Part shown: one piece after another, positions 5,937 to 23,551 of the stretch
How the letters are laid out: every line of letters starts with the position of its first letter
Numbering within the stretch: the first letter of the stretch is position 1
DNA from: an uncultured Clostridia bacterium
Lineage (GTDB): Bacteria > Bacillota > Clostridia > Oscillospirales > Ruminococcaceae
NCBI GenBank assembly: GCA_947628405.1
Contig: CANQZR010000001.1
Coordinates: forward strand, 956-64,955
Length of the DNA: 64,000 bases
Reading direction: 5' to 3'
The notes under the pieces: generated by a model
Databases searched by the model: none
What the model saw: only the letters and a program-made list of their open reading frames with translations
What the model was told of the DNA's origin: nothing
Program-made: the position numbers and the translations under genes

Positions 5937-7550
5937 TTATGTTCTTGCGTTTTTGTTATATTCTTTATCGTAATTTTGTTTTGCCTTGGTATCTGTATTA
6001 TCCGACGAAGGACGTCCTGCGCCGTCATTGTTTGTGTATGTATAAGTACTTTGGTAAGGTGTAAATACATCGTCAAGCCCCTGCAATTTTTCACTACGAC
6101 GCTTGTTTGTTTCGTCCTCGATATTAAGCCCCACCATACTGAAACAAGTTTCTCTTGACGCTCCAAAAGTAGTGAAAAGCACTTTTGCCAGCTCCTGCCG
6201 CTCTTCCGGAGAAAGTAACTCCGAATCGAGAATTTTTATTGTCGGCGCAAACTGCGGTTCAAGCCCGTTTTCTGCAATAATATTCTGATACCATTTCTGT
6301 ACAAATCTTTCTATCTGTTCCGTAATACTGTTTATAGTTTTCAGAAGTTCAGATAATGAAATAGAAGCCGTGCTTGCTCCGGTACTGCTTGTACTCATAA
6401 GGAAGCCGACCCCCAGTGAACTCAGTATTCTTTCACGGTAATTATTTACCGTATTTATATCAATAGTTCCCGTATCGCTGCACGAAACATATTTGATATC
6501 TTCCACGGTAGGACCTGCGGTAACAAGCACCATAGGTCTTTCAAACGCTTCCATAAGCATGACATGATTGTACTTCTGTTCCTCAAAATATTTCTCCCTG
6601 TTATGATCGCCGGAGACAAGTTCTTTCCTCATAGTCTGGACTATAAATTTTTTCGCTTTCACCTTTGCGTTGACCATATTTGTGTTATCGAACTGATCTA
6701 TCATCAATGCAGGATATAACGCGCGGAAAATAGGGGAAAGACCATATTTGCGCTTTTGATTGTTTATTCTTACAACGCCAGTCCAGCGATAATCAAGCCT
6801 TGCATACGGGTCATTGTCGATAAAAGCCTTATATATCTCAGGCGGATAGTTTGCTTTTATTTCTTCCCCGAGTTTCTGAAAGAAAAGACTTTCACGGTTC
6901 TTTCTGCGTTTTGGAGAACGACCTCCGAGTTTCGTGCAGAGTTTTTCCATATTAACAAGAACAACGGGTTCGCCGTTTATGTCATAATCGGATATTTCCA
7001 CAATTCCGAGAGGAAACCATGTGACGGTATATCTGCCGTCAACATTTCTGCAATAACATATGAAATTACCTTCCATATGTGCGGTAGACACCGCGTCTCG
7101 GATAAGACGTCCAAGATCAATCTCTGCATTGAAATCCGAAATTATCTGTTTGCTTTCGTTCAGCTTCGCAAGTTCCTTTTCGTCATCACCTACAGACACC
7201 GTATAGGAAGTGGTATATCCTGTGTTGACATTAGAATTTATTATCTCCTCAACTTTTCCGATAATATCGTTTTTGTTGACCTGTACACGCACAATTGAAT
7301 TTATTCTTAGAATTTTATCGAGATCGCTTTGTGCGTCAACAGCAAGCTCATTCAGCATTTTTGGCGTTGCAACAAGAGAAGTTCCGCAAAGTTCGGTAAG
7401 ATATGTGTTATATGCCATATTTTTCGGATCGTAACGAGAAATGGCATTTTCAATATCCTGTCCATGTTTTGCGGAAACTGTCATTATCGTAACATCAGTA
7501 TCCGGATCTTTGCCTATACATACACGATAATCTTCATTACTTTCTGTCAA
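5937..7550 (-). CDS. portal protein
   Basis: 537 aa, in canonical position after the large terminase (apart from the inserted PIN cassette) and before the scaffold. Family not verified. Confidence 0.65.
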   Translation of the reverse strand: MTESNEDYRVCIGKDPDTDVTIMTVSAKHGQDIENAISRYDPKNMAYNTYLTELCGTSLVATPKMLNELAVDAQSDLDKILRINSIVRVQVNKNDIIGKVEEIINSNVNTGYTTSYTVSVGDDEKELAKLNESKQIISDFNAEIDLGRLIRDAVSTAHMEGNFICYCRNVDGRYTVTWFPLGIVEISDYDINGEPVVLVNMEKLCTKLGGRSPKRRKNRESLFFQKLGEEIKANYPPEIYKAFIDNDPYARLDYRWTGVVRINNQKRKYGLSPIFRALYPALMIDQFDNTNMVNAKVKAKKFIVQTMRKELVSGDHNREKYFEEQKYNHVMLMEAFERPMVLVTAGPTVEDIKYVSCSDTGTIDINTVNNYRERILSSLGVGFLMSTSSTGASTASISLSELLKTINSITEQIERFVQKWYQNIIAENGLEPQFAPTIKILDSELLSPEERQELAKVLFTTFGASRETCFSMVGLNIEDETNKRRSEKLQGLDDVFTPYQSTYTYTNNDGAGRPSSDNTDTKAKQNYDKEYNKNART

Positions 7551-8362: not shown

Positions 8363-8402
8363 AAAAGGACTTTATTTCAACAATACAAATAAAGTCCTTT
8401 TT
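8363..8402. terminator. bidirectional stem-loop terminator between convergent genes
   Basis: Perfect 14-15 bp inverted repeat AAAAGGACTTTATTT / AAATAAAGTCCTTTT, flanked by A-run and T-run. Confidence 0.6.
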
Positions 8403-10239
8403 AATACGATATCTGTGAAACACACATAGGCATATCCACATAATCAGCTTTATAATCAGTTCTGTTTACTACCGTACCATGACGAAGCTGAGCAAGATAA
8501 AAACATAAAAGACCGAATGCGAACACTCGGTCATCGTGCATTTTATTACGCTTGTCCGGCGGAAAGTTATATGTAACATTTCCTGTATTTTCATATTTGC
8601 ACATGGTTATTATCTCTGTTTTAAGAAGCTCTATCTGCGCAAGCGATATCCTTTCTTCCGGCGACAGATCATATCGACGTTCTGCACCGTTATCATCAAT
8701 ATACGACAGATATTCCTTGTCCGAATATTCAGCAGGAAATGTCACTACGCCGAGTTTGACCATTTTTTCAATGGATTCAAATATAGCATTTCTGTTGCCT
8801 TTAGGATCAACGAGTCTCATTATATCAACGGCGTCGGGATATTTGTTTTTAGTCGTTTCATTTGCCTTGTGACTTCGGTCTATGATACCTTTGTGTGTTT
8901 TCCCGTCAAAACCTACCCAATCGGCTACAACGTAGTCCGCAACACCGCCTATCATCTGACCGCCTGCACCGCTGTCACAAATAACGGCTTTTATATTTTC
9001 ATAATCAAGTTTACCCTTGTCATTGCCGTTATAGTCAAGCAGAAGCTGTTTGAAATCTTCTACTTGCTCCGGCAGACGCTTCGGAGTTTTGTTTTTCGTA
9101 TCAATATCAACAAGACTTACAATGTTATGAAGATCCATTCGCCAGCCTTTTTCGGGATCATCAATAAACTCTGCAATCACAATGACGCTGTTATCGTTTA
9201 TACGCGCCGAATCCCACGCAAACGCAAACAAGCGGTTACCTGTATCGTTATTAAGCAGGGGAGGACGGTTTACGGTATGATTTATCAGATCGCGCCGTGT
9301 AAGTATCTGTCCTTCGTGCATATCTGCGGTAAATTTGTTATATAATTCACGCATAGCCTTGTCGTAATTGTCAGCAATGGCTTTATCAACTTTGTCTTTA
9401 CTTAACAAAGGTGGATAAGGTTCACCGTTGAATTTTGCATTAAGCACCATATCAACGTTAAAGTCGCATACGAAATATCTCTTATCACCCATAAGCATGC
9501 GAGAAGCAAACATTTTCAGCTTTTTGTAAAAAGGTGAATTTGTATCCGAAGCCGAGGAAGCATACAAAAGCTGCCGTGCAAATCCCATAGGCTCAAGGAA
9601 TATATCCACATTACCGCCTAACTTGAACCTTTCATTCTGGTTTGCAAAGTTTTCCGCCTGAACAAACAGTTCGTCGGAGAACCAACCGGCTTCATCAAAG
9701 AAAACAAGATGTGCTCTTTTACCTTTAATGTTTACTATATCCGAGTTAAGAGTGTTTATCGTTGAGTGATTAAACAGACTTAAATGAAACGAACCCGGAT
9801 CGTGTACAAAGCCGTCGCCATTAGGCGAATTATTTTCAATTTCATTCAGGAAAACATCTGTACTTCCGGTAAAGGATTCAATTTCCTTTTTGGCGATCTT
9901 CTCTATGTTGATAAAAACTTCCTTCGCCTGACCGCCTATGTTGCCAAGAACATAGGTATTATGAAACGGAATGAGTAAACTTCTATCCATAATGTAAACA
10001 CCGGCTATAGAGGTCTTTCCGCCGTTTCTGCATTGCAGCCAGATATCAAAAGGCACGAACCAAGAGTTGTATATTGCATACTTCTGATAGTCAAGAAGTT
10101 CAATACCAAGGAAACGCCGAGTAAATCCTATAGGATCTCCGCGCCCCCAGTTTATGATCTGCATATATTTTTCGTAAGTTTCGAGTTTTCTTTGAGAAAT
10201 TTCCTTTTGCGATTTTTTATTGATAATAGTCAGGCTCAT
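8401..10239 (-). CDS. terL: terminase large subunit
   Basis: 612 aa. Walker A-like QCRNGGKTS, Walker B LVFFDEAGW, and a C-terminal nuclease-like region with acidic residues (VICDSGAGG). Canonical position upstream of the portal. Confidence 0.85.
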   Translation of the reverse strand: MSLTIINKKSQKEISQRKLETYEKYMQIINWGRGDPIGFTRRFLGIELLDYQKYAIYNSWFVPFDIWLQCRNGGKTSIAGVYIMDRSLLIPFHNTYVLGNIGGQAKEVFINIEKIAKKEIESFTGSTDVFLNEIENNSPNGDGFVHDPGSFHLSLFNHSTINTLNSDIVNIKGKRAHLVFFDEAGWFSDELFVQAENFANQNERFKLGGNVDIFLEPMGFARQLLYASSASDTNSPFYKKLKMFASRMLMGDKRYFVCDFNVDMVLNAKFNGEPYPPLLSKDKVDKAIADNYDKAMRELYNKFTADMHEGQILTRRDLINHTVNRPPLLNNDTGNRLFAFAWDSARINDNSVIVIAEFIDDPEKGWRMDLHNIVSLVDIDTKNKTPKRLPEQVEDFKQLLLDYNGNDKGKLDYENIKAVICDSGAGGQMIGGVADYVVADWVGFDGKTHKGIIDRSHKANETTKNKYPDAVDIMRLVDPKGNRNAIFESIEKMVKLGVVTFPAEYSDKEYLSYIDDNGAERRYDLSPEERISLAQIELLKTEIITMCKYENTGNVTYNFPPDKRNKMHDDRVFAFGLLCFYLAQLRHGTVVNRTDYKADYVDMPMCVSQISY

Positions 10240-11518: not shown

Positions 11519-11965
11519 TTACACCAGTTTTGTTACATCATAAACTATCAGATCACACTTGCACAAATAGTGTTCAATAACCTTTTGCAAATCCTCAAAA
11601 TGTTTTTGTTTGATGTTATTTGATATAAAGAGATCCGGTTCGTCCCAAGGAATCCATTTTGTTTTTTCTTTAGCAGTCGGGAATACATTGATACCCCAAT
11701 AACAATCCTTTTTGTAAAGATAAAAACAATATACACGATCAACATCATCAGCTGTTGTAAATTCAATTTCACAAGGCTTAAAACGATAAGTGTTGATAAA
11801 CTCCATAAGATATCTCTGCACTTCACTGCCGGTAAGAATAAACTTCCATTTATCGGCGTCGCCGTTATTGAACTCGTTTATAACATCATGCACTACCTCT
11901 TCAAGAGTATCATAATGAATTTCGATATAATCTTCCAAATTACTTCGTCCTTTCGTTTTCTTCAA
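11519..11965 (-). CDS. hypothetical protein
   Basis: 148-aa ORF with TTG start. An alternative TTG at 11938 follows AAAGGA. No family recognised. Confidence 0.4.
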   Translation of the reverse strand: MKKTKGRSNLEDYIEIHYDTLEEVVHDVINEFNNGDADKWKFILTGSEVQRYLMEFINTYRFKPCEIEFTTADDVDRVYCFYLYKKDCYWGINVFPTAKEKTKWIPWDEPDLFISNNIKQKHFEDLQKVIEHYLCKCDLIVYDVTKLV

Positions 11966-12254
11966 TATATTTGAATCCCGGCATTACCTTTGCTTTTACA
12001 AGACGTTTTGCCGGTATTTTTATGGGTTTGCCGTTGCGAGGATCAAAACCATCTCTGGCAGGCATAGATTCCAGATAAACATTGAGAAATCCACGCATTT
12101 CCACACTTCCGGATTCAAGCACGGCATTTTTAAACGTTTCAATAAACGTTTCAATAGCTTTTTGAGCCTCGGCTTTTGATGTGTTGTTCCGGATCTTCCA
12201 GAACTCTGTAAAATCAGCTAATTTCAGTTTTATCACTCCATTTACTTTATTCAC
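11940..12254 (-). CDS. HU/IHF-family DNA-binding protein
   Basis: 104 aa. Layout is typical of HU: KAEAQKAIETFIETFKNAVLESGSVEMRGFLNVY...RNGKPIKIPAKRLVKAK. Confidence 0.7.
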   Translation of the reverse strand: MNKVNGVIKLKLADFTEFWKIRNNTSKAEAQKAIETFIETFKNAVLESGSVEMRGFLNVYLESMPARDGFDPRNGKPIKIPAKRLVKAKVMPGFKYIEENERTK

Positions 12255-13473
12255 TGAATTTTATAGGATATTTACATTTTATACCATAATCCTTCTGAAT
12301 TATTATCAACAATGCTCCTGCATGGGCTACTTTGTTTAGCGATAAAGCGTAATTATCAATACCCATAATACTGGGAACTCTTATTGCTTCCCGGTTGATA
12401 CCTACTACTTCTGATGTTTCGTGGTGAAGATGACCGCCGATAAGATAATCTATCCGTTTTCCATATATTCCGGAAAGATTTTCAAGCTCCGACGCCATAC
12501 TTTTTGTTTCACCATGAATACCGACAAACGTATAGCCAAGTATTTCAGAATATATCATTCCGGTGGGATTTTCAACATATGTAAAATTAGGATTATCCTC
12601 AAGACAAACTGAAACCATAGTCCTTACAATGATATCGGCATTATCATTATCAAAAGTCCCTTTCGGCTGACCGAGATAGCGTGGTTCAGTATGATTTCCA
12701 CTAACCGTTTGGAACTCAATTTTGACCGATTTTGAAAGTTCATTGAGCCATACGGTAATGAATTTTGCATAACGTGTACTGCCCTCAATAAGACCGTACC
12801 GCAGCCGGAATAACTGCTTTACTCTCAGTATCCCGTCGGAAAAGTCGCCCATAGAAAATACATACAGCTTTTGTAGGTTTTCTTTCCGTACTATTTCCAA
12901 CGTCTGTTCGTAAAGTTCCCACATTCTTTTTTCAAAAATTTCCGGGCTGTAGCTGTTTATTACTTCGCCCATAAGCCCTTTTATTTCAAATATTGTGCCG
13001 TAATGTTCATCACCGAACATCAGCACACCGACCTTATCGGCAGACGGCGCAGCTTCCGGCAAGGGTAGAGGAGCTTCCACAACAAAATTCTCACGCACAG
13101 CATTTGCGATCTTGTCCGCTATCATTTTGTCACGACCGAGTTCCCTAAGCCACCGGTTATATTCGAGTTTTTCAGTCTGTATCTGTTTAAGTAACTCTTC
13201 TTTTTCCCAACGCTCGCGCCTTATTTCATCAAGCTGTTTTTCGTCGGACACAAACTTTGCCTGATTTGCGGAAAGAAGCCTCTGAAACCCCTGCCATTGT
13301 TTGCGGTAACGGCTTTCGGTGTACTTATATCCCAATAAATTATTGAGAATATCCGCAACGTCGTTCCACGTTCCTATGGCTTCTTTGTCGGAACAAACAC
13401 GGTATATCAGCTCTTCTTCCGTTTCTCCTTCAAATCTTTTGTATTCACGCATAGCCGGTCGTCCGATCAACAT
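12247..13473 (-). CDS. calcineurin-like metallophosphoesterase with N-terminal extension
   Basis: Motifs GDEHYG, MGDFSDG, SGNHTE, GIHGE and GGHLHHE in canonical order. Confidence 0.75.
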   Translation of the reverse strand: MLIGRPAMREYKRFEGETEEELIYRVCSDKEAIGTWNDVADILNNLLGYKYTESRYRKQWQGFQRLLSANQAKFVSDEKQLDEIRRERWEKEELLKQIQTEKLEYNRWLRELGRDKMIADKIANAVRENFVVEAPLPLPEAAPSADKVGVLMFGDEHYGTIFEIKGLMGEVINSYSPEIFEKRMWELYEQTLEIVRKENLQKLYVFSMGDFSDGILRVKQLFRLRYGLIEGSTRYAKFITVWLNELSKSVKIEFQTVSGNHTEPRYLGQPKGTFDNDNADIIVRTMVSVCLEDNPNFTYVENPTGMIYSEILGYTFVGIHGETKSMASELENLSGIYGKRIDYLIGGHLHHETSEVVGINREAIRVPSIMGIDNYALSLNKVAHAGALLIIIQKDYGIKCKYPIKFSE

Positions 13474-13507: not shown

Positions 13508-13717
13508 TTATATTTTGGTTTGCTTTGAAACGACCGGATATTCTTCTGTAACACGAAAACGTCCTTGAAAATCTTCGACTGCTTTCAGGACCTTTGCTGT
13601 CTCCTCTGCATAATACTTGCCTTGTTTACCGCCGTGGCGTATCATAGTCTTGTAAATACAAGCGCCGGGGACGACAGAACGTACATATTCCGCTGTTTCT
13701 TTGGTTATCAGGATCAA
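13508..13717 (-). CDS. hypothetical protein (69 aa)
   Basis: First ORF after the two minus-strand terminators. No family recognised. Confidence 0.4.
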   Translation of the reverse strand: MILITKETAEYVRSVVPGACIYKTMIRHGGKQGKYYAEETAKVLKAVEDFQGRFRVTEEYPVVSKQTKI

Positions 13718-13751: not shown

Positions 13752-13783
13752 TGCAAATAAAAAAGACCGCCATAAAGGCAGTC
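13752..13783 (-). terminator. rho-independent terminator (minus strand)
   Basis: Minus-strand RNA AGACUGCC-UUUAU-GGCGGUCU followed by UUUUUUAUUU. Confidence 0.55.
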
Positions 13784-13788
13784 TGAAT

Positions 13789-13853
13789 TACCGAACATAA
13801 AAACCGAACGTAAAAACCGAACACAAAATACGAACATAAAAACCGAATACAAA
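13789..13853. repeat. five tandem 13-bp repeats (ACCGAACATAAAA-like)
   Basis: Units at 13789, 13802, 13815, 13828 and 13841 with exact 13-bp period. Flanked by the 7-bp inverted repeat CTGAATT/AATTCAG. Confidence 0.8.
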
Positions 13854-13891
13854 TTCAGTCTCATATATAGTATCTCATATTCATCAATTTC

Positions 13892-13927
13892 CAAAAAAAG
13901 CAGCCCACTGTAAAAGCGGACTGCTTT
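13892..13927. terminator. stem-loop terminator (A-run / T-run on both sides)
   Basis: AAGCAGCC...GGACTGCTT stem, preceded by AAAAAAA and followed by TGTGTTTATTTT. On the minus strand it ends the 14.1-15.5 kb cassette. Confidence 0.5.
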
Positions 13928-14105: not shown

Positions 14106-14537
14106 TTATTTGTCAATATCCTGTACTGGATCTTGTTCGATTTCCTGTGCTCCCGTATTCTGTTTTTTGTACATTTCGTAAAGAATTTTCAGAATGGCAA
14201 TAGTGTGATTAGTGGGGATCTTTCGCATTATAACCGCCATCATATGGAAGTGAGCTGCAAATAGCAGTATTGATATTCCACCTATTACCCCTATCCAAGC
14301 ATCACTATCGCCGTCTGATACGAATAAACCACCTATTAGAATTATTATTCCGCCAATAATAAGCAAAAGCACAGCAACTCCCATATAGAATGCATCGCTG
14401 TCACGTTTTTCACTTTCAATGTCTTTCCAAGTTACAAGATCATCTCCGATAGATCCATGTGGTTTTACATCTGGGGTTTCGTTTTCGGTATTTAGTGGCA
14501 TATGTACATCTCCTTTAAAGTTATTATCAAAGTCCAT
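14106..14537 (-). CDS. membrane protein (two predicted TM segments)
   Basis: Hydrophobic stretches YMGVAVLLLIIGGIIILIGGLFV and WIGVIGGISILLFAAHFHMMAVI. The start MDFDNNF overlaps the lipoprotein stop. Confidence 0.5.
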   Translation of the reverse strand: MDFDNNFKGDVHMPLNTENETPDVKPHGSIGDDLVTWKDIESEKRDSDAFYMGVAVLLLIIGGIIILIGGLFVSDGDSDAWIGVIGGISILLFAAHFHMMAVIMRKIPTNHTIAILKILYEMYKKQNTGAQEIEQDPVQDIDK

Positions 14538-15297
14538 CTGTATTCGTCGGGGGAATAAAAGATTTACATTCAAATTCAAGCCAAAGATTCAATTTATAAT
14601 CATAATCAAGAAGCATAAGTGTTATATTTGTATCTGTGTAGTCCCAAGATGCAGCATAAGCTATGTATCCTAATTTCAATGCTTGATTATCATCACTGCA
14701 ATATTCAGCCAAATGATCTAATGTTCTTTTAGAATTATCTGTGGGTTCACCATATTTTGCAGTAACAGATTCAACGATTGCATCATATGCTGCGTGTGCT
14801 GTAAAAGCATCATTTGTACAATTAATAGAATAAAATGCTTTGTAAAGTCCAAAATCTGGATCTAAACTGTATAGTAAAACAGCATCATGATTCGCCAAAG
14901 ATGTTTTATAAGTTAATGCGTTGTCATCTTCATCACCTATTTCATCTGTTTCAACAGATTTTAAAATTTCTTTAGTATCACCCCAACAAACATTTCTCAA
15001 AATAGTGTTTCTATCCGGAGATACTAATGTTGCCGCTGTTGTATTTGATGTTTCTGCATCAGTAATCTCGGAAGTTTCATTTGGTGTAGTTATTTCGGTA
15101 ACTGTAGTTATATCAGTAACAGGGTCTATAGCTCCATTTTCTTTATTACCTTTAGATAAAGAAGTTTCAGACAAAATTGTCTCTGATTCAGCACTTAAAT
15201 CTTCTTTAGTCGTTTCAACCTGTTCACTACTGTTTTGACACCCGCACAACAACATTAATGAAACGCCGGCAATGGCTATAATTTTATTAATATTCAT
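14527..15297 (-). CDS. lipoprotein (signal peptide with lipobox)
   Basis: MNINKIIAIAGVSLMLLCGCQNSS has a lipobox Cys, followed by a Thr/Ser/Glu-rich linker. Confidence 0.65.
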   Translation of the reverse strand: MNINKIIAIAGVSLMLLCGCQNSSEQVETTKEDLSAESETILSETSLSKGNKENGAIDPVTDITTVTEITTPNETSEITDAETSNTTAATLVSPDRNTILRNVCWGDTKEILKSVETDEIGDEDDNALTYKTSLANHDAVLLYSLDPDFGLYKAFYSINCTNDAFTAHAAYDAIVESVTAKYGEPTDNSKRTLDHLAEYCSDDNQALKLGYIAYAASWDYTDTNITLMLLDYDYKLNLWLEFECKSFIPPTNTDGL

Positions 15298-15490
15298 GCT
15301 GAAAACCACACTTTCCACAACACCAACATTCTGTTTTCTTTCCCAATGCTCCGCCTACAAGTCCGACAGGACCAAAAATAACTGCTCCGACTGCGGCTTT
15401 TCCAACACTGAAACCTTTATTCGATTCATCGACTTTTTTCCATGTAATTGAATTTCCGCACATCGGACACTTGCTTGGTGCTTTTCCCAT
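15287..15490 (-). CDS. zinc-ribbon protein with Gly-zipper membrane segment
   Basis: RBS AAAGGAGAGG lies 5 nt before the ATG (MGKAPSKCPMCGNS...CCGKCGF). Central AAVGAVIFGPVGLVGGALG. Confidence 0.5.
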   Translation of the reverse strand: MGKAPSKCPMCGNSITWKKVDESNKGFSVGKAAVGAVIFGPVGLVGGALGKKTECWCCGKCGFQHEY

Positions 15491-15573
15491 ACCAACCTCT
15501 CCTTTTAACATAATTTCCATCTTTTGACTGTAATATTTTGTTACATTCGCCAAATTTTATTGGCGTTATTTAT

Positions 15574-15582
15574 ATTATATCA
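15574..15582 (-). promoter_or_regulatory. extended -10 element (TGATATAAT) for the membrane/lipoprotein cassette
   Basis: The minus strand reads TGATATAAT. The (TA)11 tract begins 6 nt upstream of it. Confidence 0.45.
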
Positions 15583-15587
15583 CCAAT

Positions 15588-15609
15588 TATATATATATAT
15601 ATATATATA
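15588..15609. repeat. (TA)11 dinucleotide microsatellite
   Basis: Direct count of 11 TA units. Confidence 0.95.
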
Positions 15610-15640
15610 GCTTGTTAATATTCTGTAAACAATACAAAGA

Positions 15641-15663
15641 AAGCCCCGCACATTGGCGGGGCT
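15641..15663 (-). terminator. rho-independent terminator after the zeta-like gene
   Basis: AAGCCCCGC / GCGGGGCTT 9-bp stem, followed on the minus strand by TCTTTGTATTG. Confidence 0.6.
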
Positions 15664-15674
15664 TGTGTATATCA

Positions 15675-16250
15675 TCAATATTTGTAAGAAGATATATCCA
15701 ACATCTCTTTTAATTTTTTCACCCAATCGGGAATATCGGCGGTCTTTACAATAAGAGTTCCGTTCTTGTATTCAGCCGATTCAGAGAATCCGTTTTCATT
15801 ATCAAAAAAATGCGCCTCGTTGCAATAAGGAAGTATCATCATAAGATCATCAAATCTTTTTGCAAACCTGCGTCTGACATCATCGTCCGGTATATCATGA
15901 CCGCCTTTTGCCACACGGTTTTTTATGCGTCTTATACTTTCTTCGGCGGAATCTACTCCGACATAATAAAGCCGTATATAATAATCTGAAGAAACCGCTC
16001 TTTTCACCGTTTTAAGGACTCGTACACCGGACAATGTGGTTTCCTGTGTAAAACTAATACCCATATCAAGACACTTTTCGATCTGCCGTATAGCGGCTTT
16101 ACCGCCTTCGATCTTATCGCCGCCCATATCGGCGGTTATTTTGTCCGTGTTTATCAATACGCCCAGATCGTTATTTTCTGCGGACAAAACACCGGACAAA
16201 CTGCTTTTGCCCACACCGTTCACTCCGCCTATAATTGTGTATATCTTCAT
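15675..16250 (-). CDS. zeta-toxin-like P-loop kinase (COG4185-type)
   Basis: 191 aa. Walker A IIGGVNGVGKSS, with size and layout typical of the zeta/AAA-kinase family. Confidence 0.65.
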   Translation of the reverse strand: MKIYTIIGGVNGVGKSSLSGVLSAENNDLGVLINTDKITADMGGDKIEGGKAAIRQIEKCLDMGISFTQETTLSGVRVLKTVKRAVSSDYYIRLYYVGVDSAEESIRRIKNRVAKGGHDIPDDDVRRRFAKRFDDLMMILPYCNEAHFFDNENGFSESAEYKNGTLIVKTADIPDWVKKLKEMLDISSYKY

Positions 16251-16299
16251 ACCGATGACCTCGTTTGCTTATATGATCCATTAAAACGACCAAATTCTG

Positions 16300-16497
16300 T
16301 TAGTTCCAGTCAATATCATCTTCCGAGTATGTTTCTCCGTCAGCAAATTCCTGTATCGATCGTTTCAGAACGGCATATTCTTCCGATGTGAGTTTAGTAA
16401 AATCCGGATCCCATGCCAATACCACGCGTTTTATCATTTCATCAATAAGCTGCTGTTCCGCATTCTTTTTCGCTGTTTTGGAAAATATGATCTGCAA
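16300..16497 (-). CDS. small protein upstream of the zeta-like kinase (putative antitoxin)
   Basis: RBS GAAAGGAG lies 8 nt before the TTG start. 65 aa, acidic C-terminus. Assigned by position only. Confidence 0.4.
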   Translation of the reverse strand: MQIIFSKTAKKNAEQQLIDEMIKRVVLAWDPDFTKLTSEEYAVLKRSIQEFADGETYSEDDIDWN

Positions 16498-16532
16498 GAT
16501 ACCAACTCCTTTCAAGAATAGTTGTTACTTGT

Positions 16533-16597: not shown

Positions 16598-17224
16598 TCA
16601 CACTCCCTGCCCGAATATATCCCCATATAGTTCATCAATATCATTATCCTTGAGAACAAATTCTCCCTTGTTTTCAATAGGAACAAGTATTTTAAGAACA
16701 AGAGTCTTTGACCGTATCTTGTTGTCCCAAGAATACAGAGTTTTCCGTTGAATTTTTTCAACATATGAGAAATCACAAAGCTCCTCGAAGCATTTTGTGC
16801 TTGTAGTGCTTTTGCTTATTTTCAGCCAGTCGGATAAAGCTGTAAGGGATATTGAGAACTCTCCGTCACTGTCAGCAGCGACTTTTGCATAACAAAGCAC
16901 CGCAAGAGCCGTCCGGCGCACCGTAGAATTATCAAATCTTCTGATTATCTCTTCAACATCTTCTTTGCTTACCCGTACAGTAGTTTCATCTCCCCGAAGC
17001 CTGTGTTTGTCATTCATTACACGGGTAATTATTCTGTTAAGGTTGCAATCTATGTTAATGTGGTATTTTTTACCCCACTCAAATATTGTTTCTCTTATCC
17101 GGATATGTGATAAACCTTGCTGCTTGTACCATTTTGCAAGCATAAAGCATATCCTGTAAATGCTTTTTTCATTTATATTCTGTCCGTCAAGGTACTGTCT
17201 GACTTCCGAAACTTCATTGACCAT
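16598..17224 (-). CDS. hypothetical winged-helix-like DNA-binding protein, translationally coupled to the RNAP gene
   Basis: 11-nt overlap with the RNAP ORF. The segment ISLTALSDWLKISKSTTSTKCFEELCDFSYVEKI looks HTH-like. Confidence 0.35.
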   Translation of the reverse strand: MVNEVSEVRQYLDGQNINEKSIYRICFMLAKWYKQQGLSHIRIRETIFEWGKKYHINIDCNLNRIITRVMNDKHRLRGDETTVRVSKEDVEEIIRRFDNSTVRRTALAVLCYAKVAADSDGEFSISLTALSDWLKISKSTTSTKCFEELCDFSYVEKIQRKTLYSWDNKIRSKTLVLKILVPIENKGEFVLKDNDIDELYGDIFGQGV

Positions 17225-19676
17225 TTATAGCCTCCATTCTGTATTTTCTTCCGAGATATGTGTATTCACCGTCCGGATCTCTGCATGGCAGACACACCGG
17301 AACTTGTTTTATGTTCTGTACGATCCCGTCATCTGCGACTTTCCACATGAAACTTTTGCTTTTATTAGGGAAATCCTCATAGCATAACCGTACCGCATAA
17401 TTTGCGGTTTCACACTGCCCACAGGCTTCCGAACATCTTCTCCGATAAAGATCATAGTAATATTGCCAGTTGATTTCAAGACCTTCTCTGCGAAGTTCGG
17501 CGTCGCTGCGTTTTAATTCTTTCATTTCTACACAGAAATTCAGATATATTGCTTTTATTTTATCGTAGTTTTCCTGAGAAAACGGAATAGAATCATCTAT
17601 CATAATACGATAATCAAATTCCGGATATTTTCTTTTCCAACGAAAAGAACTCTCCCATTTTTCTATCTCCCAACAAAGCCTGTTCATATTGCTGTAGGCT
17701 TTGGAGAATTTTTTCATCTTTTTGTAGTAGTCCCCTGCGTACTTCATAAAATAGGGGAGCGGTTTTCCGTATTTTGCAATATTACGGGGAATGTTGTAAA
17801 TAATCCCTGTCTTTGCGGAATCAATTGCCTTGCCGTTGATTATCGACAATAATCCTACAAAATTTTCATAAACTGCTTTCTGTTCCTCGGTTTTCGGACG
17901 TTTGTTATGATAAGTAGTTGCACAGTTGCTTGTTTCACCGATAAGACTGTTCATTCCTCGGATAGCAACTTCCACTCGGTTCTCCTTTGTATCGGCTTCC
18001 GCAAGAGTAGTCGCCTTGTCCTCAATATCCAGAACAATGGCAGCGTTGCGGTCAACACCTTTCATCATAATTTCCTCGTTTACAACAAGTACAAGATCGC
18101 CGTCGTAATCTGCACCGTTGAGCCTTTGAGGAGTAATGCTCTTGCCGTTGACCATACAGACATTTGCAAGGTGAGAGCAGTATTTTTCCGTAAGTGCGTT
18201 GTTCACGCCTTTCAGAACAACGTGTTCCGACTTGCATATATGCGGATTTCGTTCTATAAGACGTTCACCGTCATATATTCCTTCGGCATCAAATCCGTAA
18301 AATTCATTGTTTTCAAGACACCCTACAGGTTCAAGACCGCCGATATGTTCCATAAGCATTATAAGATCCGGAGCAAGGAATTTAAAGGAAGCCCGTAAAA
18401 ACAACTTTCCGCATTTCATTTCGTCGATTTTTTTCTGTATAAGTGATATAACGTGATTTCTGACGCCGGATTCTTTTAACATCTGTGGGTTTTTCATAAG
18501 TGCTTTTACATATGGGTCTGTTGTAGAGTGACTGTCACACATTATCCCAAGGAAACAATATGTGTAAAAGATATCATTATCAATAACTTTCTGCACCCAG
18601 TCTATTGAAGTTTTTGCAAGTCCGGCGAAATTCTCATATTCAAGCTCCAAATCCTGTAATATCTGATAATTCCCACGGGTATAAAGCGGTTCTTCATAGG
18701 TGGAATAGTTCCACTTGGCAATGCCTATGCAGTGACCGTATTTTTCAAACATATCCCAATAATGTGACCAATCCCGTATATCGTTGTGTTTTGCAAAATA
18801 TTTGTAGCCTTTGTACATACTTTCACAAATTATCATCAAAGGATCGGCATCAGGACGGACGCTGTAACGTTCACCCCATATATCGGATATTTCAGTAACG
18901 CCTCGTTCCGCGAAGAAATCTGTGTAATTCATTTCGTGAATAACACCTTTGATGAACGGAGCGCGTATGATAGCGGAAGTCAATCCGTCCGTAACTCCAA
19001 GGATATCCCGTATCTCCTGCATAATAGCAGGGTGACATATCCCACAGCCGTCAAATACGTTTATTTCAATATCTTTCACGGTTTCCGCAAGGTCTTTTTG
19101 TATCCATTTACGGCGGACGCCGTTTTTGTCGGTAAATTCCGTTTCCTTGTCATAAGCGTATTTTATCCGCTGTCCGGGAATAGTCTTGTAAAGATCAGGG
19201 ACTACAACTATTTTCGGACGAAATTCCTCCAGACAGTGGCATGAGCTGAGCATAAGCCCTCTATAAGCGTAATATTTGGATAGAACAGTCTTATCAATTC
19301 GTATATCCATAGCGGTTATCTCGTTCAGACGATCAATTATGGAACTGTCCACAAAGCTGAGTATGGACGTCCGAACCATAGAAGCAGAACGTTCGCAGCA
19401 TTCAAAGTGCTGACCTCTAATATCAAGACCGTTCACTATAAGCTGTCTAAGTTCGTCCTTGCAGGATCTTCCGCCTTTGCAGTCAACAAATATTATGTAT
19501 TTGTTGAATTTTCTATAATCGCCGGTAATACGCCGTATCTGCCTGAACAGCATATTGTCCTGCTGATTTATGTAAAACTGTCTTTCTTCGTCAGCGGATA
19601 TCTGTACGTTGAATCCATTGTTAATAAGAAATCTGAACGGGAATTTCCGCACAACGTAAAGCGGAGGAGAAAACAA
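17214..19676 (-). CDS. YonO-like / RdRP-family (double-psi beta-barrel) single-subunit RNA polymerase
   Basis: 820 aa. IERNPHICKSEHVV is followed by NGADYDGDLVLVV (DYDGD codons at 18096-18110). These match the RNP...DbDGD signature of cellular RdRPs and SPbeta YonO, and resemble the beta-prime NADFDGD motif. Confidence 0.75.
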   Translation of the reverse strand: MFSPPLYVVRKFPFRFLINNGFNVQISADEERQFYINQQDNMLFRQIRRITGDYRKFNKYIIFVDCKGGRSCKDELRQLIVNGLDIRGQHFECCERSASMVRTSILSFVDSSIIDRLNEITAMDIRIDKTVLSKYYAYRGLMLSSCHCLEEFRPKIVVVPDLYKTIPGQRIKYAYDKETEFTDKNGVRRKWIQKDLAETVKDIEINVFDGCGICHPAIMQEIRDILGVTDGLTSAIIRAPFIKGVIHEMNYTDFFAERGVTEISDIWGERYSVRPDADPLMIICESMYKGYKYFAKHNDIRDWSHYWDMFEKYGHCIGIAKWNYSTYEEPLYTRGNYQILQDLELEYENFAGLAKTSIDWVQKVIDNDIFYTYCFLGIMCDSHSTTDPYVKALMKNPQMLKESGVRNHVISLIQKKIDEMKCGKLFLRASFKFLAPDLIMLMEHIGGLEPVGCLENNEFYGFDAEGIYDGERLIERNPHICKSEHVVLKGVNNALTEKYCSHLANVCMVNGKSITPQRLNGADYDGDLVLVVNEEIMMKGVDRNAAIVLDIEDKATTLAEADTKENRVEVAIRGMNSLIGETSNCATTYHNKRPKTEEQKAVYENFVGLLSIINGKAIDSAKTGIIYNIPRNIAKYGKPLPYFMKYAGDYYKKMKKFSKAYSNMNRLCWEIEKWESSFRWKRKYPEFDYRIMIDDSIPFSQENYDKIKAIYLNFCVEMKELKRSDAELRREGLEINWQYYYDLYRRRCSEACGQCETANYAVRLCYEDFPNKSKSFMWKVADDGIVQNIKQVPVCLPCRDPDGEYTYLGRKYRMEAINGQ

Positions 19677-19680
19677 ATTA

Positions 19681-20751
19681 TCATACTCCTTTTATATAAA
19701 AATTTTCTTCTTTGTCAAAAGTTGACCACATATCCTCAAACCTATCCGAAAACGAAATATTCAGAAGATAATCCGCAAGGTCACGCTGAGCTTCAACATA
19801 TCCTCTGTGATAATGAAATTCTCCGTCCGGAACATAGGATTTTTTTCTGTATCGGTTTGCAGCCTGTTCATTGAGAGAATCCATTATCAGGCGGTTAAGG
19901 TCACGGCGTATCTCGCTGAAAGTAAGATTCCCTATATCCGTACACCGTAAAGGTGATATTTCTCCGTTCCCGGAAGTATAGGAAAGAACTATCCTGCTGT
20001 ATACGCCATGCCAGTCATAGCTCTCCTGTAAATAGGAATTTATCTTAAAGTTAAACTCATGTATCCTGCCGGAGATCAGAACATCTCTCATATTGTGACA
20101 ATCCATCTGACTGAGGATCTCCGCCTGAGCGTCCTCAATAATACTTGTTTCCCGGACGTCCGCAGTATCCTTGTAAAGCATATGGGACGCAGGATCTGAC
20201 CTGAAAATTACATATTCTGTCCGGTAGTCTATGATATTACGCTTTTGCATACTGTTCAGAGCCGTAAACAGTATCTTGTTCAGCTTAGCAGCCGTTCTGA
20301 TACGGAAATCATCAACATCATATGATGTCATTTCACCTGATCTCACAGCATTTTCAATAATATCACTGTGCCGTAAACGCAAGTCCTCATAATTCCCGTT
20401 TACAAATCCGAGCATAGCGTACAGATCGTTTTTAAGGCAATAAAGTCTGTTGTTCCTGCACGAAGCAAGCAGACGAACTGTCAGGGCTTCAATATGTCCC
20501 AGATAAACGCCCTCACGGAGGCTTCTTCCGTCAACATAGGGCAGGGGAACATCATAAATTTCCGTAACAATGTACTTGTGTCCTTCACGTCTCCAACGGA
20601 AATATCTTTCCCAGTTCCGTAACTGAGAACGCTTATCGTTTCCTGACCCTTTACAGGGTACACAGCCGAGGACCTCGCACATAGCCTTATAATTTTTCAC
20701 TTCCGTACCCACACAAATACGGCTCACATCAACATAATATTTATCATTCAT
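19681..20751 (-). CDS. hypothetical protein, first gene of the RNAP operon
   Basis: Start MNDKYYVDV with AAAGGA upstream. Ends 4 nt before the RNAP start. No family recognised. Confidence 0.45.
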   Translation of the reverse strand: MNDKYYVDVSRICVGTEVKNYKAMCEVLGCVPCKGSGNDKRSQLRNWERYFRWRREGHKYIVTEIYDVPLPYVDGRSLREGVYLGHIEALTVRLLASCRNNRLYCLKNDLYAMLGFVNGNYEDLRLRHSDIIENAVRSGEMTSYDVDDFRIRTAAKLNKILFTALNSMQKRNIIDYRTEYVIFRSDPASHMLYKDTADVRETSIIEDAQAEILSQMDCHNMRDVLISGRIHEFNFKINSYLQESYDWHGVYSRIVLSYTSGNGEISPLRCTDIGNLTFSEIRRDLNRLIMDSLNEQAANRYRKKSYVPDGEFHYHRGYVEAQRDLADYLLNISFSDRFEDMWSTFDKEENFYIKGV

Positions 20752-20920
20752 ACATTCCTTTGGTGAAGAGACTTTATCACACCGACCTCCTCGCAAACAA
20801 ATTGAAGAACCTCCTCACTTAATATTATAAAGTTTATAAAGAAATTTTCAACCGACTTCTTACAAGATTCTCGACAGAAGCTCCGGAAGATCCGGAAGAA
20901 GCTCCTTTGTCCCGTAACAA

Positions 20921-21056
20921 AAAAATTTTGCCCCAATTATAAGTCGAATATATAATATAATATAGTTTAGTAATTTATATATAGTTATATAATATAATAT
21001 ATAATTAATATATATATATATATATTATATAGAGCTTATATATGGGGCAAATTTTT
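20921..21056. repeat. long imperfect palindrome enclosing pure A/T sequence and a (TA)8 tract
   Basis: Arms AAAAATTTTGCCCCA (20921-20935) and TGGGGCAAATTTTT (21043-21056). Inner arms are partly complementary. (TA)8 at 21009-21024. Confidence 0.7.
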
Positions 21057-22094: not shown

Positions 22095-22301
22095 CTACCG
22101 CTCTAACTCTTCCAGCGTATCAATCGCGATCCGCACGAAATCCGCTTTACTGATCTTGTTTCGCGTGCAATACTCTTTGATACGTTCCACGATTTCCGGC
22201 GAAACCTTAACGCCGAAATCTTTATAGTGCTGCTTGTTATAATTGCCGGTGTATTCTTGTTTATTGAACCTTTCCGGGCGTTCAATATACTTTTTGTCCA
22301 A
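22095..22301 (-). CDS. ribbon-helix-helix (CopG/Arc-like) DNA-binding protein, paralog A
   Basis: 68 aa, TTG start after AAGGAAG. FGVKVSPEIVERIKEYCTRNKISKADFVRIAIDTL fits a strand-helix-helix layout. Confidence 0.55.
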   Translation of the reverse strand: MDKKYIERPERFNKQEYTGNYNKQHYKDFGVKVSPEIVERIKEYCTRNKISKADFVRIAIDTLEELER

Positions 22302-22655: not shown

Positions 22656-22871
22656 TTACTTTTCCAAGCCTTTTAAAGTAGTCAGGGCAAGTTTTAAAAA
22701 TTCCGCCCGGCTGATATTTTTCCGGCTGCAAAATTCTGTTAAATCTTCCATTAGTTCCGGCGAAATATCCGCGATATACCTTTTATAATGTTCTTTGGCG
22801 TATTTAGCATTATATGCTGATCTGTTGAATTTATCATTTTTAGCAGGACGCTCAATATACTTTTTATCCAA
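22656..22871 (-). CDS. ribbon-helix-helix DNA-binding protein, paralog B
   Basis: 71 aa. Shares MDKKYIERP and the overall pattern with paralog A, and has the same TTG start context. Confidence 0.55.
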   Translation of the reverse strand: MDKKYIERPAKNDKFNRSAYNAKYAKEHYKRYIADISPELMEDLTEFCSRKNISRAEFLKLALTTLKGLEK

Positions 22872-22957: not shown

Positions 22958-23320
22958 AATATCAAGATAAGACAAACGAGACCCGATAATGTAAGAGTAG
23001 TCGACAAGGCGGTAACAGACCGCTGGCAAATCCACCGGGCGAAGTCTTATAAATAGTATAACAAATTATCCCGACAATGTCAAGACAAAGTCGGATACAT
23101 ACCGCCGGATCCTATGGGGATCAGATCCGGAAAACCTCAATCCTGCCGGGAATAATCCCGAATCCGTCATAACCCGGACTTTGACGGACAAAATTATAAC
23201 CGCCGATTTTCGCCGGCGCGTAACCAGAAGCGGAAAAGTTTTTCGGGGCTTAACTTAAAACCCCACCCCACGCCGAAAGGCTTTGAAAAAAGTAAAATTA
23301 TATTTTAGGAGGATAAAATA

Positions 23321-23551
23321 ATGAAAGTTATAAACGAGAAAAATTTAAAGGACTTTGAATTTTGGAGCGGTGCAAAGGATCGCGCCCAGTATCTGACAGA
23401 AGAAGAGTTCGACACCATCGAACAGACTTTAGAAGAATGTTATCCGGACGGAATGACAGAAACCGAGATCAACGATTTTTTCTGGTTCGACTTTGAAACC
23501 GTTGCCGAGTGGATCGGAACGACAGAAGAAGAAATTTTTAATAGAGCATAA
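23321..23551 (+). CDS. highly acidic small protein (first early gene)
   Basis: RBS AGGAGGA. 76 aa, roughly 30 percent Asp+Glu by eye. Confidence 0.6.
   Translation: MKVINEKNLKDFEFWSGAKDRAQYLTEEEFDTIEQTLEECYPDGMTETEINDFFWFDFETVAEWIGTTEEEIFNRA

Follow-up and report, generated by a model that had tools for sequence, protein, structure and literature searches.

Gene organization at the head of the late arm

The DNA analyzed here is a 64,000-nucleotide (nt) stretch of contig CANQZR010000001.1 from an uncultured Clostridia bacterium, and it is referred to below as the window. Its minus strand carries a block of three genes that encode, in order, a protein of 356 amino acids (aa), an 820-aa single-chain RNA polymerase of the family of YonO from phage SPbeta, and a 208-aa protein that is called the partner here (Table 1). 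The first open reading frame (ORF), which has 371 aa if read from the TTG at 20796, ends 4 nt before the polymerase start, and the partner ORF overlaps the 3' end of the polymerase gene by 11 nt. The TTG start of the polymerase gene is credible because the N-terminus MFSPPLYVV is kept in its relatives. A sigma-70-type promoter-like site lies about 70 nt 5' of the ATG at 20751, before the three-gene block. A preliminary description of this DNA had reported the three ORFs, the sequence motifs of the polymerase, and their location on the same strand as the packaging and head module, and all of these were found as described.

The three genes lie upstream of those for an exonuclease, an HU-like DNA-binding protein, the large terminase subunit, and the portal protein, all on the minus strand. 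In SPbeta-like phages the order runs from the polymerase, followed by the partner where there is one, through a small ORF or YonK to YonJ, HU, terminase, and portal. The exonuclease of the window occupies the yonJ position, and its counterpart in the related locus L005 carries the YonJ_N domain. Metagenomic relatives keep the same gene order, and their genes match the Pfam families YonK, YonJ_N, and YonG_N. Additionally, an HU gene near the polymerase is conserved in SPbeta, TR-TP1, PMBT24, c-st, and BUCT082. The opposite, rightward arm encodes a primase-helicase, DNA polymerase, helicase, methyltransferase, NrdD, and integrase, and both GC and AT skew reverse sign near position 23000. The earlier placement of the polymerase at the head of the leftward packaging and head arm is borne out by this SPbeta-like synteny.

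Identity of the polymerase

The 820-aa protein matches the Pfam RdRP profile PF05183 with 67.5 bits (cutoff 23.8; E-value (E) 1.3e-18), and the match extends over residues 66-654 of the polymerase and positions 48-572 of the 582 in the profile. It also matches the PHROG family phrog_8308 (E 1.2e-83), and tblastn against GenBank phages reached SPbeta yonO directly (E 1e-13 to 1e-17). By the same method, the polymerase is 48% identical to a human-gut contig, 41% identical over its full length to the Thomasclavelia phages TR-TP1 and TR-TP2, and 24% identical to the Enterocloster phage PMBT24. In an alignment of 41 sequences that includes YonO, the residues R476, P478, D523, D525, and D527 are invariant, as are K134, K243, K289, and K622. 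R476 and P478 belong to a second conserved segment, R-x-P-H, and the lysines represent basic residues kept in the other barrel.

A search of the PDB with the polymerase as a single sequence gave no match. The profile of the 41 sequences, when compared with the same database, matched Arabidopsis RDR2 (7eu0/7roz; E 3.4e-8), other plant RDRs (7w82/7w84; about 1e-6), and Neurospora QDE-1 (2j7n; E 0.012). In the profile match, the DxDGD loop of the polymerase aligns with the DLDGD of the solved RDR2. The assignment of the 820-aa ORF to the single-chain two-barrel polymerases of the YonO and eukaryotic RdRP family, first made from its motifs, is well supported by these sequence comparisons. The motifs are not due to chance, and the polymerase adds a member to a family already known.

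YonO is the DNA-dependent RNA polymerase of SPbeta and is required for 37 late genes, which form one operon from upstream of yonK (PMC5467207; PMC8270828). DNA-dependent, rifampicin-insensitive RNA synthesis and the dependence of late transcripts on the enzyme have been shown for YonO itself only (PMC5467207). The earlier proposal that the phage in the window transcribes its late genes with the 820-aa protein is a reasonable extrapolation from that work. Whether YonO recognizes promoters alone or needs host or phage factors was left to be determined by Forrest et al. (2017; PMC5467207). A literature search found no description of a YonO cofactor or promoter, which is not proof of absence.

A predicted winged-helix partner of one polymerase clade

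The distribution of the partner was traced in 160 loci from viral and genome collections that encode members of the polymerase family, with all ORFs searched iteratively. The partner family was first found in 60 loci. A further 16 loci joined it by hidden Markov model (HMM) search (E 1e-43 to 1e-63) and profile-profile comparison (probability 100%, E 6e-48), and the partner in L104 was added on re-inspection. In 75 of the 75 loci with both genes, the partner is encoded on the polymerase strand and starts between -65 and +75 nt from the polymerase stop codon, mostly overlapping it. When 132 distinct polymerases were placed in a neighbor-joining tree, all 47 partner-bearing ones fell within one clade of 52. 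After re-inspection, 49 of the 52 clade members had a partner, including the gene in L104 and a split, divergent copy in L002. The sole partner-less members are L097-L099, whose 1019-aa polymerases were considered as polymerase-partner fusions and rejected for want of any partner signal. The coupling of the two genes persists down to about 23% polymerase identity, and the partner family is a small one, since clustering at 50% identity gave 145 clusters from 1.84 billion proteins. The partner is labelled 'hypothetical' in all of the cultured phages known to have it (TR-TP1/TP2, PMBT24, CB457/CB473, c-st, and BUCT082). The partner is a strictly conserved, uncharacterized companion of one polymerase clade.

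No Pfam or PHROG profile matches the partner, sigma-70 and sigma-54 domains included, and no sigma structures are found among its fold matches. In the AlphaFold2 (AF2) model, which has a mean predicted local distance difference test score (pLDDT) of 81, a helical N-terminal domain is combined with a winged-helix domain. All of the PDB fold matches are winged-helix DNA binders, and they are weak (best E 0.037; template modelling (TM) score about 0.3 over the whole query). Full-length matches came from the viral structure library and are uncharacterized gut siphovirus proteins, evidently members of the same family. From the model, the partner is predicted to be a winged-helix DNA-binding protein.

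Some members of the family occur in less usual settings. In L009 (8001-8639) and L010 (520-1158), a partner homologue lies between a 1675-aa tape-measure gene, which precedes it, and a truncated YonG_N-like gene; after the latter come an HTH_17 excisionase-like gene and an integrase gene. This lone partner may belong to a rearranged prophage end or a satellite-like module. In L112 (MUGC01000121.1), a polymerase-partner pair lies on a 4.3-kilobase (kb) contig binned to the metagenome-assembled genome of a Thermoplasmata archaeon; this is probably a mis-binned phage contig because all other members are distributed in the Bacillota.

Both genes are affected by insertions or fusions. The polymerase gene of many relatives is split into 2-3 ORFs by insertions of 0.3-2 kb, and split polymerase genes or endonuclease insertions were recorded in L023, L027, L030, L040-L049, L051, L053, L059, L062, L077, and L096. 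Partner proteins fused to homing-endonuclease domains (NUMOD4 with HNH, or GIY-YIG) include P0055, P0080, P0084, P0129, and L042 10314-11648. Selfish endonucleases or intron-like elements seem to insert preferentially into this gene pair. No full polymerase-partner fusions were found among the 145 representative clusters, in which the long members are homing-endonuclease fusions and are uninformative on function.

A tail module shared with YonO

A C-terminal CxxC...CxxC tail of the zinc-ribbon type is present on 83 of the 92 partner-less polymerases, YonO included, and on 0 of the 53 partner-associated ones. Among the partners, the tail is found on 28 of the 38 proteins of at least 230 aa and on 0 of the 26 shorter ones, which represent the sub-clade of the window. 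The tails of the polymerases and of the partners are homologous, as judged by hhalign (probability 95.3%, E 2.2e-8). Likewise, BLASTP aligned residues 201-245 of the BUCT082 partner with residues 777-820 of YonO (40% identity, E 4e-5). The annotators of the c-st genome had independently labelled the partner gene 'YonO-homolog (C-ter only)'. The tail gave sub-threshold generic matches at most to named zinc-ribbon families. The idea that the body of the partner is contained in partner-less polymerases was ruled out, since the alignment is limited to the tail of about 50 aa.

The Bacillus subtilis phage BUCT082, which is classed as a Spbetavirus, has a polymerase only 25% identical to YonO, and this polymerase is accompanied by a partner. 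The non-coding region of about 1.5 kb before yonK is 94% identical between BUCT082 and SPbeta, and 97% identical over the proximal 850 nt. The mapped YonO start site of SPbeta lies within this region (PMC5467207; PMC8270828). Because the two phages have the same late control region, the polymerase-plus-partner pair and the tail-bearing YonO are natural alternatives. The alternation of both modules on one late control region suggests in turn that the partner works with the polymerase. The yonK-upstream region of SPbeta also contains a DUF3800-VIII RNA motif of Rfam (L004 9027-9092; 47.5 bits vs. 40.2).

The upstream 356-aa protein

Both neighbors of the polymerase had been suggested as specificity or processivity factors. 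For the 208-aa protein this suggestion holds up as far as candidacy is concerned: it is HTH-like, in the form of a predicted winged helix, it is the conserved companion described above, and its family shares a tail module with YonO. The 356-aa protein, on the other hand, is not a conserved partner. Pfam searches gave no match for it or for 14 relatives, and a sequence search of the PDB gave none for the protein itself. Its AF2 model is poor (pLDDT 61) and yielded no credible fold match, and a profile search with its family retrieved just 5 database proteins. Relatedness to the 208-aa partner was rejected (hhalign probability 0.2%).

Members of the 356-aa family were found in 21 loci out of about 170, between -1.1 and -4.6 kb from the polymerase and on either strand. 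In the closest relatives of the window, the homologue lies 3.7 kb upstream of the polymerase, and three genes (Bro-N, ParB_N, and ORF6C-like) intervene. Among the 65 partner-clade loci with enough upstream DNA, it is the immediate neighbor of the polymerase in the window only. Its variable position and strand and its rare adjacency led to its rejection as a conserved polymerase partner, and the gene is an orphan outside the conserved system. Other genes take this place elsewhere. Several other clade members share an upstream neighbor of about 166-197 aa (ORF6C-like in L005) that is absent from the window, and in BUCT082 a 515-aa ORF (L173 162-1709), unrelated to the 356-aa protein, overlaps the polymerase start.

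A candidate late control region

In close relatives of the window, the partner stop codon is directly followed by an element of about 20 nt, then by tandem repeats, often by a hairpin, and then by the first gene of the late arm. The family consensus of the element is about TATATGAATACTAATAATGTG. The arrays repeat a unit of 13 (sometimes 14) nt in tandem 3-6 times, and the unit differs by lineage (TTTCATTTGAGAT, TGATTCATTTTAC, TTGACAAGAAATT, ATATGGCCGTTTCT, and GTCACC-type). In the window, the same architecture is found 2.7 kb downstream of the partner, beyond an inserted island. This 2.4-kb island is a lineage-specific insertion, since the motif and array of the relatives fall 0-330 nt after the partner stop. 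Terminator-like hairpins with T-runs flank the motif and array in the window, and the conserved 69-aa ORF that follows has an equal position in the close relatives.

A motif model built from other loci only gave its top score in the whole window, on either strand, at this element (E 0.11; next best 6.6). Loci outside the model (L093 and L024/L026) also score highest at the expected place after the partner gene. About 17 lineages have the element after the partner gene, and every independent strict match among 171 loci has this position. Second copies on the opposite strand in L012, L032, and L092 were dismissed as a chance match over a start codon with no array after it. The single copy in the window is in keeping with the single late operon of SPbeta. 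The 400-nt stretches downstream of the partner gene make up 2.6% of the sequence and hold 6 of the 32 arrays of period 12-14, an enrichment with p = 1.6e-4. Moreover, the autocorrelation of the 90 nt after the motif, pooled over 19 lineages, peaks at a lag of 13 (0.411 vs. 0.276 +/- 0.013, z = 10.5). The motif and array are a candidate late promoter and control region of the sub-clade to which the window belongs.

No known RNA family in Rfam matched the control region. By analogy with SPbeta-type packaging, which starts upstream of yonP-yonO, it is unlikely to be a pac site. In the window, the motif can pair with the first repeat units to form a long G-U-rich hairpin (13788-13893, minus strand; sense z = -4.7). 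Such a motif-to-repeat hairpin was dropped as a part of the model because it is strong in the window but is not conserved in most relatives.

Table 1. Features of the polymerase locus, the late arm, and the control regions. Coordinates refer to the window unless another locus is named.
Feature	Coordinates	Strand	Basis or score
Upstream ORF, 356 aa from ATG	19681..20751	minus	phrog_36702
Sigma-70-type promoter-like site, TTGAAA-16-TATAAT	20824..20851	minus	11/12 consensus positions
YonO-family single-chain two-barrel RNA polymerase, 820 aa, TTG start	17214..19676	minus	PF05183, phrog_8308, yonO tblastn, invariant residues
IERNPHICKSEHVV segment, residues 474-487, with invariant R476 and P478	18216..18257	minus	
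NGADYDGDLVLVV segment, residues 520-532, with catalytic-type loop D523-x-D525-G-D527	18081..18119	minus	
Partner protein, 208 aa, helical N-terminal domain and predicted winged-helix domain	16598..17224	minus	position after polymerase, AF2, fold matches
Accessory island between partner gene and control region, 2.4 kb	14106..16515	minus	
Zeta-toxin-like kinase in island	15675-16250	minus	PF06414, 24.3 bits, above cutoff
Terminator-like hairpin upstream of motif, stem of 13 base pairs, then T-run	13893..13927	minus	-19.3 kcal/mol, z -5.7
Conserved motif AATATGAGATACTATATATGAGA, candidate phage-polymerase promoter	13859..13881	minus	model from other loci
Tandem array, 13-nt unit GTTCGGTTTTTAY, 4.5 copies	13790..13847	minus	
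Second terminator-like hairpin (13784-13764) plus T-run, directly before first late-arm ORF	13756..13784	minus	-13.4 kcal/mol, z -6.1
Conserved small ORF, 69 aa, first gene after control region	13508..13717	minus	family in 25 loci
Exonuclease/metallophosphoesterase at yonJ position	12247..13473	minus	phrog_284, E 9e-51
HU-like DNA-binding protein (yonN equivalent)	11940..12254	minus	PF00216, 55.9 bits
Large terminase subunit	8401..10239	minus	phrog_2, E 8e-16
Portal protein	5937..7550	minus	phrog_2739, E 9e-33
yonK-upstream non-coding region, SPbeta	L004 7853-9386		
yonK-upstream non-coding region, BUCT082	L173 5893-7442		

A proposed mechanism and its alternatives

On balance, and with modest confidence, the locus is read here as a two-gene form of the YonO-based late transcription of SPbeta, in which the polymerase and its winged-helix partner initiate transcription of the late arm at the motif. 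Host RNA polymerase would express the 356-aa gene, the polymerase, and the partner from the sigma-70-type promoter. The 820-aa protein, which belongs to the YonO family, would by analogy with YonO act as a DNA-dependent RNA polymerase. The partner, which is coupled to it in the genome and whose family shares the tail module, may interact with it as a dedicated accessory or initiation factor. Together, the two proteins would start transcription of the packaging and head arm at one control region, made up of the motif (13881-13859) and the array (13847-13790). Each protein would have its own site: the motif, conserved like the polymerase, would be read by the latter, and the lineage-specific repeats would be bound by the winged helix of the partner, which varies more. 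The flanking terminator-like hairpins would stop read-through by host polymerase. YonO-type enzymes do not have the flap domain that is used in hairpin-dependent termination (PMC5467207), and for this reason it may be speculated that the phage polymerase passes the hairpins.

A wider claim is possible but more doubtful, namely that one entire branch of the YonO-type polymerases is a two-component enzyme. Its dedicated winged-helix factor, with or without a zinc ribbon, would have taken over the tail module of YonO, or would share it, and would be needed for promoter-specific initiation. The promoter of the sub-clade would then be the TATGAATAC-TAATAATGTG element, and the 13-nt repeats would be the lineage-specific sites at which the factor binds.

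Several observations weigh against the two-gene transcription system proposed here. The two-barrel fold of the polymerase is assigned by homology to solved two-barrel enzymes, and every functional step beyond family membership is inferred, for all members of the clade alike. The partner in the window is itself without the zinc-ribbon tail that supplies the fusion-type argument. Its fold matches say just 'winged helix', and iteron-binding plasmid initiators are among them. A homologue that is 58% identical has no adjacent polymerase gene in L009/L010. The motif is short and AT-rich, and its E-value in the window is just 0.11. The motif and the 13-nt arrays are confined to the sub-clade of the window and are absent from SPbeta (yonN-yonK gap), BUCT082, and PMBT24-like loci, which excludes them as a target common to the whole partner family. 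Finally, if the motif is the promoter, then the repeats lie downstream of it, an arrangement seen more typically at repressor operators or in transcribed leaders than at activator sites.

The partner could be an ordinary sequence-specific repressor or activator that binds the 13-nt repeats and times transcription from the late control region, rather than a polymerase subunit or initiation factor, and the adjacency of the genes would then reflect a common regulatory cassette. Its predicted fold resembles that of the MarR, ArsR, and CodY repressors, the repeats have the typical position of an operator between the motif and the first late gene, and a lineage-specific repeat unit is expected of a co-evolving regulator and operator. 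This explanation is nonetheless somewhat unlikely. The complementary movement of the zinc-ribbon tail between the C-termini of the polymerase and the partner is difficult to reconcile with an independent regulator, there are partner-bearing lineages that have no arrays (PMBT24-like and BUCT082), and the overlapping start and stop codons at most loci suggest co-translation in a fixed proportion. The repeats could alternatively act in RNA, where the motif, repeats, and hairpin would form a transcribed leader and the repeats would bind a protein, such as an antiterminator or attenuator and perhaps the partner itself, that controls the downstream hairpin. The YonO transcript of SPbeta does begin with an unannotated non-coding RNA before yonK (PMC5467207), and in the window, L005/L012, and L014 the array is succeeded by a terminator-like hairpin. 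Compared with shuffled sequences, the sense strand of the window folds far better (z -8.1 overall; central part, -4.7), and the z of +0.5 for the opposite strand indicates that the sense RNA forms G-U pairs. However, conservation of the central fold was not seen, with most relatives at z -0.1 to -2.5. Several lineages with arrays have no following hairpin (L022/L030), and winged-helix domains usually bind double-stranded DNA, so that a leader of this kind is distinctly unlikely.

A role in replication or in RNA-templated synthesis has still less in its favor. Tandem direct repeats beside a winged-helix gene are the classic iteron layout, and the partner and array could form a replication module, with a winged-helix initiator and an iteron-like origin, that lies beside the polymerase gene by chance. 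The fold matches include RepA_N-type plasmid initiators (4pt7, 4pql, and 5kbj) and models of phage replication protein O, RepA, and RepL, and the distant family hit P0173 is fused to an archaeo-eukaryotic primase domain (E 3.4e-4). However, the Rep-type matches (E 0.07-0.17) are no better than those to repressors, the replication genes lie on the other arm, and many partner-bearing lineages have no array. The array of the window is 2.7 kb from the partner gene yet directly before the late genes. Because the partner gene also accompanies the polymerase gene in 75 loci and its family has a tail in common with YonO, a replication module appears very unlikely. It is hardly probable at all that the 820-aa protein functions in RNA-templated synthesis, priming, or counter-defence while host polymerase makes the late transcripts. 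Databases and close relatives do label the family 'RNA-dependent RNA polymerase', QDE-1 is reported to have both activities (PMC9508822), and the clade is just 22-25% identical to YonO. Against this, the synteny with the head of the SPbeta late arm is kept, and BUCT082 has a clade member before a late control region nearly identical to that of SPbeta.

Comparison with known systems

Like the polymerase of the window, YonO belongs to the PF05183 family and carries the invariant RxP and DxDGD residues, and the two proteins are similar in length (839 and 820 aa). Both also stand at the head of a structural and packaging arm, with HU-like, YonJ-like, terminase, and portal genes downstream. Their sequences are 22% identical. 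YonO possesses the CxxC...CxxC zinc ribbon and a basic tail and has no partner gene, whereas the polymerase of the window has no such tail and is overlapped by a partner gene. On account of these two differences, the locus was classed as a variant rather than as a plain YonO system.

The same arrangement of polymerase, partner gene, and then HU and packaging genes is found in the named phages TR-TP1/TP2, PMBT24, CB457/CB473 (Enterocloster), c-st (Clostridium botulinum), and BUCT082 (Bacillus). TR-TP1 is the closest named relative, with 41% identity in the polymerase and 28% in the partner. The polymerases of these phages are annotated as 'RNA-dependent RNA polymerase' or 'hypothetical'. The partners outside the sub-clade of the window have 240-280 aa and a zinc ribbon, whereas the 208-aa partner of the window has none, and the genes upstream of the polymerase differ from those of the window.

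More distant enzymes resemble the system in part. RDR2 and QDE-1 are homologous to the polymerase family by profile, with the catalytic DxDGD loop aligned. In contrast, the eukaryotic RdRPs have about 1000-1400 aa, act in RNA silencing on mainly RNA templates, and have no phage context and no such partner. The virion RNA polymerase gp66 of the crAss-like phage phi14:2 and the non-virion gp64 and virion gp96 of P23-45 are non-canonical two-barrel phage enzymes that read their own short promoter motifs (PMC10770324). They are packaged in the virion or act early, and no dedicated winged-helix partner is described for them in that text (PMC10770324). Single-sequence and profile searches of the PDB gave no sequence match between the polymerase of the window and those of phi14:2 or P23-45.

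The jumbo phages AR9 and phiKZ have non-virion multisubunit RNA polymerases with split beta- and beta'-like chains and a dedicated promoter-specificity subunit for late promoters. The likeness to the system proposed here is an analogy in how it works only, and the specificity subunit is not known to be related in sequence. Archaeal TFE and eukaryotic TFIIE-alpha, which consist of a winged helix followed by a zinc ribbon, are initiation factors that act with a two-barrel polymerase. They resemble the long form of the partner in domain order only, and the partner of the window is without the zinc ribbon. Fold and zinc-ribbon family searches gave no sequence or fold match of the partner or the tail to TFE or TFIIE-alpha.

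Other features of the window

The accessory island contains several genes besides that of the zeta-toxin-like kinase. The kinase is preceded by a 71-aa ORF that could encode an antitoxin, and the rest of the island encodes two membrane proteins, of 88 aa (Cys-rich) and 157 aa, and a lipoprotein-like protein of 263 aa. A 26-aa hydrophobic ORF is preceded by a promoter with perfect sigma-70 consensus (14116-14088).

The region between the arms is also structured. At the strand switch, directly 3' of a small ORF (23321-23551), lies a Twister-P5 ribozyme (Rfam RF02684; 23559-23619, plus strand; 59.5 bits vs. a gathering threshold of 37.6, E 7.8e-10) that matches the full length of the model. In the divergent inter-arm region, two paralogous small ORFs on the minus strand (22095-22301 and 22656-22871; 68 and 71 aa) both begin with MDKKYIERP and could encode small DNA-binding regulators; a perfect sigma-70-type promoter (12/12 positions) is found nearby at 22645-22617. 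Just 5' of the promoter of the polymerase block is an AT-rich tandem repeat (20948-21031) with a 35-nt unit in 2.3 copies, or alternatively a 19-nt unit in 3.8 copies. By analogy with SPbeta, in which packaging starts upstream of yonP-yonO, this repeat region is a candidate genome opening point.

Implications

Among known relatives of the multisubunit RNA polymerases of cells, YonO-type enzymes are the smallest, and they are discussed as models of a single-chain ancestor. The two-gene form, the migrating zinc-ribbon tail, and the control region with its motif and 13-nt array appear undescribed. Together they supply a candidate factor that is coupled to one polymerase clade, has a tail in common with YonO, and belongs to a module interchangeable with YonO in B. 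subtilis phages. They also supply a candidate promoter or control element for YonO-type polymerases. The question of a YonO factor is directly testable, because cultured systems with members of the clade exist in BUCT082, in phages of Thomasclavelia and Enterocloster, and in c-st, a toxin-converting phage of C. botulinum. The result would correct the widespread labelling of this gene pair as 'RNA-dependent RNA polymerase' and 'hypothetical protein' in the genomes of gut phages. If the proposed system is real, its partner would be the first initiation factor defined for the YonO family and its motif the first promoter, and they would answer the question left by Forrest et al. (2017).

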